DNA of 64,000 nucleotides. Source: Eledone cirrhosa. Its lineage: Eukaryota. The notes under the pieces were generated by a model. It saw only the letters and a program-made list of their open reading frames with translations, was not told where the DNA came from and ran no database searches. Within the stretch, counting starts at the first letter, position 1, and each line of letters begins with the position of its first letter. The stretch lies in NCBI GenBank assembly GCA_964016885.1, contig OZ024746.1, positions 84,816,001-84,880,000 on the forward strand, read 5' to 3'. The translations under genes and the position numbers were made by a program. Positions 1 to 63,274 of this stretch are shown in pieces.

Positions 1-195
1 TATATACATACATATATATATATACATATAAATATATATATACATATATATATATATATATATATATATATATACATATATATATATATATGTATATGCA
101 TATATATATATATATGCATATATATATGCATATATATATATATATATATATATATATATAAATATATATATATATATATATATATATATATATAT
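1..195. repeat. (TA)n microsatellite, representative of dozens of (TA)n/(CA)n/(GA)n arrays across the window
   Basis: Direct dinucleotide periodicity. Confidence 0.99.
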
Positions 196-414
196 TTATT
201 AAAATAACAGATTAAAGTTTAAGCAAAGAATCGCTGCTTTCACCCTTAACGGGATCTTCTGATTCCCGTTAAGGGTGAAAGCAGAGATTTTTGCTTAAAC
301 TTTAATCTGTTATTTTAATAAATATTTGCTCTACGGTTCTTATATATTTGATATATATTTATCCTTATCGAGCCCTCTTTGGATTTTAGTCTTCAAATTT
401 ATTATTATTATTAC
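195..414 (+). mobile_element. TA-flanked asymmetric fold-back element, family A, short copy (HHR-bearing, Penelope-pLTR/retrozyme-like)
   Basis: Inverted arms ~195-254 / 264-323 with loop TCTTCTGAT, then a ~90-bp tail. Near-identical to the ends of the 28546-30197 element. (TA)n on both sides. Confidence 0.85.
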
Positions 415-1785
415 TATATATATATATATATATATATATATATATATATATATATATATTGCAATCTGCACTGGATTTCTTTCGTGAGAATTGAAAAACA
501 AAATGTGCATTCATTACATTTTTTCACTTCTTCTATCAGTATATCACTCTCTCACTGATTTATGAACTTTGAGACTGAATTTTCTCCCTTTAAAAACCTC
601 TTTTTTCTTTTTTTTTATGGTGGAGCACAGAAAAACTCAAAGCAATACATTTTCACTCGTCTATACATTTCAAATTATCGATTTTTAATGATATATTTAT
701 GACGAAAACTTTTGAAATTATTCTATAGTGATGTCTTACTATAGTCGGTTTCTCTTGACTGTGTGTGTGTGTGTGTATATATATATATATATATATATAT
801 ATATATATATATATATATATATATATATATATATATATATATATATATATATATATATATATTTGTGTGTGTGTGTGTGTATAGATGTGGCCTTGTTGAA
901 GCTAGTTGAAGTTCAAGCTTAAGAATACACACACAAACATAGACATATACATATAAACATACAGACAACCCCATATATATATATATATGTATATATATAT
1001 ATATATATATATATATATATATATATATATATTAACCATAACACTAACATAGAGCATAGACTTATATATACATGTGTCTCCGCGTACATCCATATATATA
1101 TATATATATATATATATATATATATATAGCTTCCTTTCTACTTCCGTGAATTAACTAATCCTTCTCACCAATTAATTTCGTAATTAGTAAAATTGAGTAA
1201 TTGATTAATTAATTTACTAATTAAATTCACCTTCTTAATAACAGGAGTATATTCCAAATTGTCAGATTTTAGTCCATTACAGAAGAAACACGCACTCACA
1301 CGTACACATACATACAGACACATACAAATACAATCAATTATATATCTGCTCATCACCGTATAAGGTGTGTATGTACCTGAAATTACTCAGAGATTAATAT
1401 CTTCTGTGTTCAGCATAACTTTAATCGAGCGATATTTATTTAACTAATGGTATTTAGAAAAATATATAACTGCAATATCGTTACTCGGAATTTCATCGTT
1501 TATAGTACATTGGAATCGTGTCGTTCATTGTCCGTGAACATGTATCGATAGATCATGTTTTCTCAAGCTCCAACCGGCTATGGAAGTATTTCCTAATATC
1601 GAATCAGTTGACCAATACCTTGGGAGTGAAACCAGTAATAAAATAAGACAATAAAAATGTTGTTATATATATATATGCACACACACACACACGCACACAC
1701 ACACACACACACACACACACACACACACACACACACACACACACACACACACACACACACACACACACACACACATATATATATA

Positions 1786-1850
1786 TGTTGTAATGCTTTG
1801 GGAGAGCGAGGCTGCCAATAAAAACAGACGTTTCACTTCAGTTTTTCATT
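1786..1850 (-). mobile_element. Family E terminal fragment, degenerate
   Basis: TTGTAATGCTTTGGGAGAGCGAGGCTGCCAATAAAAACA resembles the reverse complement of 62425-62466; abuts (TA)n. Confidence 0.5.
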
Positions 1851-1999
1851 ACTTGAGTGAGTATTTCATTCATCGCTTAGTTTAATAACCGGCTGGTTGT
1901 TTAATTTTTAAATGATGTGAAAACTCGTTCGTCTTACATCCTGTGAATATCTCAGTGACTATCATTTTTATTTTGTAGTGATAGCAAATATATATATAT

Positions 2000-2193
2000 A
2001 TATCATAAAACATGTCTATAGAATCACCAGATAAAATATATACCATTTCCTCTCCCAATCTGGTGATTCTATAGACATGTTTTATGATATATAGCTCTGA
2101 TTATTTAACTTTTCATTGAGCCACAATGTGACCCGTTGCAAAACACGTATATGTATATATGTATATATATATATATATATATATGTAAACCTT
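2000..2193 (+). mobile_element. TA-flanked asymmetric fold-back element, family F, short copy
   Basis: Perfect inverted arms ~2000-2032 / 2058-2090, then a tail (AGCTCTGA...GCAAAACACG) whose reverse complement occurs at 51431-51495. Confidence 0.8.
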
Positions 2194-2297
2194 TATATAT
2201 ATATATATAGTTAAATATAAATGAAACAAACAAAACACAGGAGGCAATTTTTACATAATTAAATTAAGTTCACGCTTGGTGGAAGTGGTGGAGTTTA

Positions 2298-59950: not shown

Positions 59951-60150
59951 NNNNNNNNNNNNNNNNNNNNNNNNNNNNNNNNNNNNNNNNNNNNNNNNNN
60001 NNNNNNNNNNNNNNNNNNNNNNNNNNNNNNNNNNNNNNNNNNNNNNNNNNNNNNNNNNNNNNNNNNNNNNNNNNNNNNNNNNNNNNNNNNNNNNNNNNNN
60101 NNNNNNNNNNNNNNNNNNNNNNNNNNNNNNNNNNNNNNNNNNNNNNNNNN
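59951..60150. other. Assembly gap (200 N)
   Basis: Direct. Confidence 1.
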
Positions 60151-61240
60151 TATACAAGAACCCAAATATTTCCAGTGATATACATTTTAAAATAGAAGAA
60201 GAAAATGATATTCATCTACTATCTAGTTAGCAATCGAATTATCTATCTATCTATCAATTTATCTATCCATCTATCTATCTATCTATCTATCTATCTGCCC
60301 GATCTCTCTCTCTCTCTCTTCTCTCTCTCTCTCTCTATATATATATATATATATATATATATATATATATATATATATATATCATGTAATAGCTTCCTTC
60401 CTTCACTGGTACTCAAGTGTCCAACCGCCCATCCAATAACCTATTATTATTCCATTAAATTATTTGTCTACTGTCAAATATCCATACCTTGTGAATTCAT
60501 GCGACAGAAATGGTGCCCAATGATGCTTGCTTCACACAGTATTGTTAACAATGTAACAGCTGGCAGATAGGCCGAAATATAGGCTTAGGGGTATATATAC
60601 ATACATACATACGGACAAGTATACTATATATATATGTGTATATATATATATATATATATATATATATATATATATATATATATATATATATATATATACA
60701 TATGTGAAGAGAGATAGAAAGAGATAGATAAATAGTGGCGTTATATATATATATATATATATATTACACACACACACACACACACACACACACACACACA
60801 CACACACACACACACATATATATATATATTATATATATATTCGTATAGCACTCTTTGTTATTGTTTTTGTTTTTTACTTTACTATATGTGTGTGTGTGTG
60901 TGTGTGTGTGTGTATGAATATATAAATATATATGTATGTATATATATATATAGTATATATATTATATAATATATATAAAGATAGAGAGAGAGATAGAGAG
61001 ATAGAGATAGAGAGAGAGAGAGTGTGTGAGAGCGAAAGAGAGAGTGAGAGAGAGAGAGAGAGAAAGATAGAAGGATAGTGACAGGATAGATGAATGGATT
61101 TATAAATAGATCGATAGAGAATATGATGCACTCACACATACACACACACATGATACATATATAAATACGTACATACATAGATACATATATATATATATAT
61201 ATATATATATATAATATATATATATATATATATATATATG

Positions 61241-61838
61241 TTAGAATTAGTGCTCTGAATAGCTATATATCTATATGAATGTATATACAGTGTATTTTGC
61301 AATACACTGTATGCTTATTTAAAAGCATTTCGAAGACCTTACGCTATTGTTTTAGAGTAGTGACAGTCTCACTTACTTTAATTTTCAGCAACCAGGGGAG
61401 ATAAAGCTGACAGAGCTCTGTTTCATACTTTTTGGTACTTATAAAAGCTAAGTACTCCACCTGTTTACTGAAAATCATGAATGTTTGATTCTTATAGAAC
61501 TCTAGTAATAATCATGAACTGATTATACAGTTATATATCGCTATTTCAGAGCGCCAATTCTAATTTTCAATTTCTGCTTGACCGGCAACCACTCTGTATA
61601 ATCAGTTCCTGATTATTACTAGAATTCTATAAGAATCAAACATTCATGATTTTCAGCAAACAGGAGGAGTACTTAGCATTGATAAGTACCAAAGAGTACG
61701 AAACAGAACTCTGTCAGCTTTATCTCCCCTGTTGCTGAAAATTTAATGTATGTGAGACTGTCACTACTCTAAAACAATAGAGTAAGGTCTTCGAAATGCT
61801 TTTAATTAAGCATACAGTGTATTGCAAAATACACACAC
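61241..61838. mobile_element. TA-flanked fold-back element, family I (~240-bp arms 61290-61530 / 61594-61834)
   Basis: Long diverged inverted repeat; an extra IR at 61241-61270 / 61533-61563; degenerate HHR at 61675-61719 (AGCA-TTGATAA-GTAC-CAAAGA-GTAC-GAAAC-AGAACTCT-GTC-AGCT). Confidence 0.85.
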
Positions 61839-62302
61839 TATATATATATATATATATATATATATATATATATATATATATATATATATATATTATATAT
61901 ATATATATATATATATATATATATATATATATAATATATATATAATAAATATATATATATATATATAATATATATACATAGAGAGAGAGAGAGAGAGAGA
62001 GAGAGAGAGAGAGAATGACGGGATGGATAGGTGAATGGATTTATAAATAGATTGATAGATAACTTGATACACACATATACACACACAAACACACATATAT
62101 TTATATATATGTATGCATGTATGCACATACATAATACATGCATATATATATATATATATATATATATACAAACACACTTTCATACATATATGAAAGTATG
62201 CTGGAACTCCGTTTCTCTCCTTTGTTCTGTCCTACACCATTTACACAAAAAAGAGATGGTGTAGGACAGAACAAAGGATAAACACTTAAAAGAAAGACCT
62301 AG

Positions 62303-62343
62303 TCACTGAGGAGGTCACAGAATGTGTGACGAAAGAGCTTTGA
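62303..62343 (+). ncRNA. Minimal type I hammerhead ribozyme, family E (element ~62195-62466)
   Basis: TCA-CTGAGGA-G-GTCACA-GAATG-TGTGAC-GAAAG-AG-CTT^-TGA; followed by AATAAA and a tail into (TA)n. Confidence 0.75.
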
Positions 62344-63274
62344 GAATGTATAAACAACCTTCCGGTTACCGAACCGACCTGCCGGAAACTTATAATAAAT
62401 TGAAGTGAAAATCAACAGGTGCGTGTGTTTTTATTGGCAGCATGACTCACCCAAAGTATAACAATATATATATATATATATATATATATATATATATGTG
62501 TGTGTGTGTGTGTGTGTGTGTGTGTGTGTGTGTGTGTGTGTGTGTGTGTGTGTGTGTGTGTGTGTGTGTGTGTGTGTGCTTGTGTGTATGTATGAAAAAA
62601 GAGCGAATCCCTAGAGCTTTTATATGAAGTACCGTTTACCTTTCACTCTTTCATATTTCTTTTTGAAGAATGGAATATATATATATATAGGTTCTTTAAT
62701 TTGTCCTAAATCTCCGCTATATTTAATACTATATTTGTATTATTTCAATGTGAGAAATGTTATGAATCAGTTTACCCAAATACAAACTTTATGAGTTGTA
62801 GTGTTATTTATTTATTTGTATTAATATTTTTACTATTTTTTTTTTCATATTTATTTATTTATCTAATGATTCCAGTACCTAACATCTATGTAGTGGAGAT
62901 ATAGCACAATTGAAATTAATTAATATTTTCTTTTGATAAATTCGCCCACCCTACTTTATTATCAGAGCATCACAGTATTATTTTTATTGGTAACATATAT
63001 CTATTGCTGATATACAAATGGGAAATTTGTTGCTTGGTGTTTTTTTTCTTATAAATTATAATTTAATATAGTAACTATTTTTACTTTCAATATTAGTATT
63101 CATTTCATTATCTTAATTAAGTACCATGAAATTATAATTATTGGCCCTACGTAACATTCCATCCATGACCCCACAACTTACGTTGAAATTTAAACCTAGA
63201 GGAGCTCATCCCATTCCATGTCGGGACACAGCTGATTTCTTCTTCTTCTTCTTCTTCTTCTTCTTCTTCTTCTT

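Follow-up and report, generated by a model that had tools for sequence, protein, structure and literature searches.

Head-to-head 3' ends of Penelope-like elements in the (TA)n runs of the Eledone cirrhosa genome

Penelope-like elements (PLEs) which target (TA)n in nearly all of their families and carry hammerhead ribozymes are already published as the Hydra clade, with one octopus family among them, in the available text of Craig et al. 2021 (PMC8557442). A purified anole PLE, a predicted dimer, nicks both target strands and extends them from a pair of internal start sites, one at either limit of the tail, without any need for hammerhead cleavage (PMC11167929), and PLEs are reported to be active and expanded in Octopus vulgaris, hammerheads being unmentioned in the available part of that report (PMC13282606). 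The origin of the inverted ends of PLEs and of their one-sided tail is still left open in the accessible parts of PMC8557442, PMC11167929 and PMC3846280. We analysed the repeats lying within (TA)n runs in a 64,000-nt stretch of the 3.0-Gb genome of Eledone cirrhosa (contig OZ024746.1, positions 84,816,001 to 84,880,000; hereafter the window).

An original prediction, made from this sequence, had distributed these repeats among nine families, A to I, and described them as a guild of separate non-coding, snap-back elements. Our analysis indicates instead that most of them are 5'-truncated 3' ends (pseudo-long terminal repeats, pLTRs) of coding PLEs, only F and I being retrozyme-like, and that their head-to-head layout with a single tail likely results from nicking of both strands of a (TA)n run, each nick priming reverse transcription at a different fixed site. 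What the copies show directly is gene continuity, a pair of fixed 3' ends in each of seven families, head-to-head pairs that nearly always take one arm from either end, arms whose lengths are independent, and apex joints that vary; from these findings we infer the priming scheme.

The genome was searched with each family, the best 25-30 of 40 scored loci (L numbers below) being taken per search, and 34 places were extended. Arms called unselected are bystanders within loci collected for other families, and 60 evenly spaced 10-kb stretches (600 kb) served as the background sample.

Links to Penelope-like genes

Family A was continuous with a Hydra-type gene in L271-L274 and L286, with an unbroken frame of 701 codons, family B in L277, with an unbroken frame of 733 codons, and family C with reverse transcriptase (RT) and GIY-YIG sequences in L012 and L030. 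Family H was located 1.75 kb below a Hydra-type gene, on the same strand, in L287; this gene-to-end link is one copy, whose last ~1.5 kb are common to a second copy. A sister family of G (72% over 133 nt) lay in L336 between the end of one Hydra-type gene and the start of the next, and family E ran into a fragment of a CCHH-type GIY-YIG and RT gene (L125/L351 and L133/L352). A partial tandem pLTR was present upstream of the gene in L286, L277 and L336. The predicted joining of copies to RT and GIY-YIG genes was thus found by continuity for A, B, C, E and H and through the sister for G. The original prediction was right in that the repeats are products of a PLE machinery aimed at TA, bear hammerheads and inverted ends of pLTRs, and are not miniature inverted-repeat transposable elements (MITEs).

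The Hydra-type proteins had RWR or RWK, DKT, a CxCx5C linker, and CxxC and CxH around a conserved E and N, with no CCHH. RWR and SDKT were found in A and B, SDKT in H and RWK in the sister of G, while the recovered sequence of C excludes the N-terminus; the linker and zinc-type motifs were found in A, C and H, and the linker of B was intact in L241/L242 and had one substitution in L277. On visual comparison, the proteins of A and B agree motif by motif with the text of Hydra-1_Obim. Because this motif set matches the definition in section 11 of PMC8557442, we provisionally assign A, B, C, H and the sister of G to the Hydra clade. Their lengths, ~3.3 kb for A, ~3.6 kb for B and ~4.3 kb for H through long 3' untranslated regions (UTRs), exceed the 'generally <3 kb' of the clade, a length that is a tendency rather than a strict criterion in the available text (PMC8557442). 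The Neptune and Nematis clades have a C-terminal GIY-YIG with CCHH and a CX2-5CxxC linker. In E, CCHH and CxxC were present and Pfam gave GIY-YIG with an E value of 2.6e-4, while neither of two decayed copies showed the upstream Cys; judged by its predicted protein, E is a canonical PLE of the CCHH type. For the proteins of A and B Pfam named no domain, and the protein search returned 963 relatives, with 36-52% identity among the 120 matches listed and no clade names.

Family F, in which six of ten tailed copies were followed by the start of the next unit, and family I, built of 320-bp tandem units, are probably retrozymes, non-coding pLTR units in tandem that the same proteins would move in trans. 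Family D is old, with 73-88% identity over ~225 bp. Two apparent gene links were rejected as chance: the F-gene junction in L164/L165, where F begins in the middle of the hammerhead after a TA word, and the adjacency of G to genes in L200 and L288. Some copies of A and G lay inside larger tandem or segmental duplications (L077, L078 and L087-L090 on contig C12; L197-L199 on contig C2) and are not independent insertions.

Hydra-type gene fragments were present in 10 of the 60 background stretches and E-type fragments in 5, and numerous A and B copies were 95-100% identical to the probe. The nine families formed 19 clusters in the window and 74 insertions in the 600 kb elsewhere, the latter equal to one per 8 kb; the predicted density was roughly one per 4 kb. 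Extrapolation gave ~370,000 copies of the nine families genome-wide (95% range 290,000-464,000). Few families of the Hydra clade had been described before, and in this genome of 3 Gb its remains are found about once per 8 kb.

Two 3' ends, their pairing and the proposed insertion mechanism

Seven families had two sharp 3' ends each, 57-97 nt apart (rather than the 65-95 bp predicted), the interval being the PLE tail, and a short TA(T) word was present at both sites. In tandems, the outer end continued into the 5' UTR ~45-95 nt before the start codon. (TA)3 was found within 4 nt after the 3' end at 149 of 190 unselected 3' ends, compared with 7.3% of random positions. Flanks of this kind would conceal any target-site duplication.

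Head-to-head pairs consisted of one tailed and one tailless arm in 162 of 172 cases. Among unselected pairs, 49 of 50 had one of each end (p ~1e-13 against 0.5), and in the evenly spaced stretches 12 of 15 did, the remaining three having one end 10-15 nt off a site. The tailless arm reached more than 8 nt further 5' in 59 of the 162 pairs and the tailed arm in 30, while 73 were equal; for the 49 unselected pairs these numbers were 20, 8 and 21, respectively, and in 9 of them the arms had no overlap. Apex joints varied among the 156 scored: 77 showed microhomology, 13 were blunt and 66 carried inserts. Rare variants were shared by the two arms of one insertion at 167 of 10,594 sites, compared with 1,084 of 294,438 across insertions, an excess of about fourfold.

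The 5' limits differed between families. Unselected B arms stopped 128-143 nt from the end in 64 of 86 cases and only 2 went beyond, and the equal-arm class was mostly family B. H arms stopped at 258-270 in 26 of 50 cases, at an initiator-like word ~30 nt below a TATA word. The 5' ends of A, C and E ranged continuously from 25 nt to more than 3 kb into the gene, and fixed 5' starts were found in D, F and a further family, J. Truncation at the hammerhead site was rejected as the source of 5' ends, there being no pile-up at that site in A, B, C or H, and an apparent pile-up of C arms at 135-143 was absent in unselected copies and was put down to query bias. At the apex of family B in L041, L055 and L056, at least ten A were present where the template has only three T, which suggests that slippage or an untemplated addition occurred where the RNA has its 5' end.

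The sequence that leads away from the flank is antisense cDNA on both strands. In the scheme that we favour, the PLE endonuclease would nick both strands of a (TA)n run and, as (TA)n is its own reverse complement, both strands would present the same 3'-OH primer, which could anneal to the short TA(T) words at the two start sites. Each nick would prime at a different one of these fixed sites, and the two antisense cDNAs would stop early, their truncated ends being joined by microhomology or by a template jump. One ribonucleoprotein, probably with a protein dimer, may use a single template, and the limit of the B and H arms would be run-off at the 5' end of the RNA, probably at a transcription start within the pLTR.

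The inverted arm could also be made by self-priming (snap-back) of one cDNA followed by an endonuclease cut at an inner TA site, as proposed for rotifer PLEs (PMC3846280). This would explain the one-tail rule and the variants shared by arms, and in 103 of 162 pairs the tailed arm is at least as long as the tailless one. However, a self-copy cannot exceed its template, and the tailless arm is the longer in the 59 of 162 and 20 of 49 pairs given above; in 9 of 49 unselected pairs the arms have no common sequence at all, and a reverse copy cannot create a tail. As a self-primed copy is neither longer than its template nor provided with a tail that the template lacks, at least two fifths of the unselected pairs need two primings. 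The predicted 'snap-back' thus misfits at least 20 of the 49 unselected pairs; self-priming as the sole route is refuted, and we regard it as an unlikely origin of the inverted arm. The pairing rule favours priming on two strands over snap-back.

If the short hairpins were instead non-autonomous elements, with SINE- or retrozyme-like masters (SINE, short interspersed nuclear element) copied as whole hairpins, the sharp 5' limit in B and H, the fixed 5' starts of D, F and J and the tandem units of F and I would be expected, and for F and I copying of whole units is likely true. The apex joints differ from copy to copy, however, so that hairpins are formed anew at each insertion, and the 5' ends of A, C and E are continuous into the gene, which makes this account improbable for the repeats as a whole. 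Derivation from MITE-like DNA transposons with terminal inverted repeats and a TA target, to which the hairpin shape and TA flanks would correspond, is extremely improbable and is refuted for A, B, C, E, G and H, with D alone a possible case, given unequal ends (the tail), variable inner boundaries, 5'-truncated copies that run into RT and GIY-YIG genes, hammerhead covariation, and neither equal terminal inverted repeats, fixed length nor a transposase partner.

Several results weigh against priming on both strands. Ten of the 172 pairs break the pairing rule (six with two tailed and four with two tailless arms), and 225 arms, some from broken alignments, had no partner within 400 nt, so that the evidence for two-strand priming does not extend to every insertion. 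The 73 equal-reach and 30 longer-tailed pairs among the 162 also fit self-priming; E and G showed no excess of shared arm variants, which could in any case come from gene conversion in palindromes. No gene link was found for D and F among the loci collected and extended, and the candidate link of I is one sister copy (L361) behind a TA-rich run. As most loci are the top 25-30 matches, the family samples are biased to young copies. Finally, the anole PLE in vitro showed neither a strand difference in start site nor target homology in the available text (PMC11167929).

A coupling in which two primers take different sites was not found in the literature searched. As far as the literature was searched, the size of the Hydra-clade expansion, the long tails, the off-consensus cores in the youngest families and the counted pairing rule are new. 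A bolder reading, possible but somewhat short of an even chance, is that PLE integration is a coupled two-primer reaction in which a dimeric ribonucleoprotein nicks both (TA)n strands and copies one template twice, always once per start site, the short products being those that run off the RNA at its 5' end; the ~370,000 records here would then stem largely from an unrecognised Hydra-clade expansion, and the U4A and C3·A8 hammerhead cores of the two youngest families would be either dispensable or new active variants.

Elements of the window and their hammerheads

All 17 places of the original prediction held the named repeat, at or within a few bases. The elements are as follows (coordinates in the window, strand in brackets).
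196-414 (+), A1: two 3' ends of family A, head-to-head; the tailless arm is at 196-262 (-) and the tailed arm, with a tail of 86 nt, at 264-414 (+)
28546-30196 (-), A2: 1,651-bp head-to-head pair, 3' UTR only; the tailed arm (-) runs from ~29438 to 28546 and the tailless arm (+) ends at 30196; CAGAAGA-core hammerhead folds lie at ~28656-28706 (-) and ~30126-30176 (+)
15633-15842 (+), B1: head-to-head pair with a tail of 77 nt; of the family hammerhead only the GAAA half is present
26991-27184 (-), B2: head-to-head pair, 77-nt tail
47090-47281 (+), B3: head-to-head pair, 77-nt tail
31362-31525 (-), C1: head-to-head pair, hammerhead interrupted by truncation in both arms
31545-31665 (-), C2: lone tailed arm, 5'-truncated, without an inverted partner
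39546-39749 (+), C3: head-to-head pair with a tail of 65 nt; the hammerhead cores, at 39618 (+) and 39609 (-), have the U-U pair at the foot of stem II
27427-27527 (-), D1: copy of the old ~225-bp family, minimal hammerhead without loop III; ends at the predicted cleavage triplet and adjoins a fragment of another repeat, 27528-27645 (+)
50545-50720 (-), D2: family D copy, core at 50652
2210-2400 (-), D3: related minimal hammerhead of a different small family, core at 2325
62169-62463 (+), E: tailless 3' end and short inverted piece, full hammerhead at ~62302-62342
1785-1976 (-): older E-related copy, absent from the original list; second fragment at 26481-26585
2004-2147 (+), F1: head-to-head pair, 65-nt tail, followed by a TA run and the first bases of the next F unit
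51432-51778 (-), F2: head-to-head pair; reach from the outer end 81 nt for the tailed and 341 nt for the tailless arm
27207-27388 (-), G: head-to-head pair, both arms tailless; hammerhead core at 27304 (-)
38783-39112 (+), H: head-to-head pair with a tail of 97 nt; the tailless arm extends over 266 nt, compared with 172 nt, and contains the hammerhead core at 38883 (-)
61241-61838 (-), I: units of ~320 bp arranged as a head-to-head pair, with a U3-A8 hammerhead and a tandem junction at 61563/61564
26718-26945 (-), J: additional TA-flanked family, missed originally, in which the hammerhead is complete and the 5' start is fixed; core at 26817

The layout of arm, inverted arm and tail held in A1, B1-B3, C1, C3, F1, F2 and H, although the predicted order of short arm then long arm was not fixed and G, with its two tailless arms, is an exception. 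The repeat at 28546, listed as short, is the 1,651-bp pair A2, which ends at 30196. Flanks were scored for 18 window elements, drawn from 16 places of the original list (D3 taken as the 2298 place) and J: a TA run was present on both sides of 12, on one side of 5 and on neither side of 1 (D2, by the rule applied). Six matches to family J were found in the 600-kb sample.

A full type I hammerhead fold was found in copies of all nine families, gathered by homology. This includes F, which had been listed as the exception and whose complete hammerhead lies upstream of the part present in the window. The exact CTGANGA word was found in the window only in C3, D2, D3, E, G and H; the window cores of A and I were CAGAAGA and TTGATAA, respectively, and the window copies of B held only the GAAA half. 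Over the collected loci, the A core was CAGAAGA (U4A) in 64 of 68 and CTGANGA in none, and the B core had C3·A8 in 36 of 45, U3-A8 in 8 and one C3-G8-like read. A CUGANGA or U3-A8 core was present in C, D, E, F, G, H and I, and the cores of A and most B were off-consensus.

Covariation was counted for family I only (29 distinct sequences): 96% of cells paired and 6 of 13 pairs changed on both sides, compared with 0 of 500 shuffles, a test which the kinship of the sequences inflates; slid controls gave 0-2. Two sister copies showed a swap between U3-A8 and C3-G8. Stem covariation in family I and an excess over shuffled sequence, two of the points on which the original prediction was to be judged, were both obtained, the latter in the background sample, where a strict type I descriptor gave 39 matches compared with 0, 0 and 0 in three shuffles, or ~195,000 genome-wide by extrapolation. 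The window alone was not decisive, with 1 strict match compared with a mean of 0.07 and a maximum of 1 in 30 shuffles, and 2 relaxed matches compared with up to 2 in shuffles. A looser descriptor, of a kind that has background, gave 73 motifs in 29 clusters in the 600 kb, 12 of them multi-member, from which we conclude that the genome holds more families than these nine.

Rfam gave no hammerhead among the 150 matches listed for the window, which were microsatellite look-alikes of miRNA models, and none at the gathering score in 9 loci. With Pfam and Rfam silent on the A and B proteins and the hammerheads, annotation pipelines may miss or mislabel such elements.

A U-U pair under stem II was found in A and C, and most Hydra-clade hammerheads carry one (PMC8557442, File S2, as available). 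U4C lowers hammerhead activity, and U4A was not found in the available text of the same paper (PMC3088659); U4A and C3·A8 were not found in the available text of PMC4209133, and the work of Lunse et al. on PLE hammerhead variants may cover them. Because the cDNAs extend across the cleavage site and the cores of the two youngest among the abundant families are off-consensus, hammerhead cleavage would not be needed for these insertions, and A and B are natural tests of whether the hammerhead must cleave.

Three further observations touch these families. A fragment with the GAAA half-motif stands head-to-head with family D at two independent places (window 27528-27645 (+) and L100/L356 7352-7440) and may be the partner arm of D or a separate family. 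A lone hammerhead-like motif with a 6-bp stem I is located near a TA run at 47846-47905 (+), with no other copy among the collected loci. The unplaced contig C1299 (L116, L217) is a near-exact repeat of the 61.2-62.5 kb region of the window and probably the other haplotype.

Simple repeat makes up about one third of the window (22,008 masked bases). Its sole noteworthy long non-repetitive open reading frame is a fragment like a long interspersed nuclear element (LINE). A 131-codon frame at 51780-52175 (+), adjoining F2, resembles the C-terminal part of the LINE-type RT frame of L229. A very abundant ~190-bp interspersed repeat, which we take to be SINE-like by its appearance, was found at 5805-5975 and about 20 more places (for example 12118-12300, 19014-19200, 28851-29037 and 43400-43585, one copy being inserted in A2), with 113 matches in the 600 kb. 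A young ~400-bp repeat has three copies, 96-98% identical, at 42917-43305, 47985-48376 and 53118-53521. Host exon frames were present in the flanks of L204 (2085-2777, -) and L206 (2012-3100, +), presumably sirtuin-like and seven-helix receptor-like, respectively.

Comparison with known systems

The closest described elements are PLEs of the Hydra clade such as Hydra-1_Obim and Penelope-13_HM (PMC8557442, in the text available), which have the same single gene of ~700-720 aa with RT followed by GIY-YIG, the same RWK-type, DKT, CxCx5C, CxxC and CxH motifs without CCHH, (TA)n targets, a hammerhead close to the 3' end whose stem II frequently has U-U beneath it, and an inverted 5'-truncated copy. 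Unlike the entry for Hydra-1_Obim in File S2 of that paper, which they mismatch, are the hammerheads of A and B.

The Poseidon PLE of Anolis carolinensis, PAc (Frangieh et al. 2024, PMC11167929, as far as its text is available), shares the pair of fixed sites at which RT starts, which delimit the tail and lie near the start of the gene, the use of both strands and insertion independent of cleavage. It differs in that in vitro it shows no strand coupling and no target homology, whereas in E. cirrhosa there is one site per arm and a short TA word at both.

Families F (~630 bp) and I (~320 bp) are, like the metazoan non-LTR retrozymes in the available descriptions (PMC7229834; bioRxiv 10.64898/2026.07.22.740005), non-coding tandems with one type I hammerhead each and related in design to pLTRs. 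Unlike those retrozymes, they were seen as only 2-3 units per place, usually head-to-head; F is also longer than the 170-400 nt of retrozymes and has a TA spacer. The minimal and variant PLE hammerheads of Cervera and de la Pena (2014, PMC4209133, in the text available) have the same extra base after A9, the short palindromic helix III of D, E, F and H, the U3-A8 variant seen in I and in sisters of B, and opposite-strand pairs 100-700 bp apart.

The rule of one site per arm, together with independent arm lengths, counts against self-priming and yields a sharp prediction that suits the in vitro system already established. In twin priming of L1, the second target strand primes an inverted cDNA at a variable second site, and the two pieces do not overlap. 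Second-strand priming of an inverted cDNA is thus common to L1 and to the scheme proposed for the PLEs of E. cirrhosa, but here the sites are fixed and the arms usually overlap.

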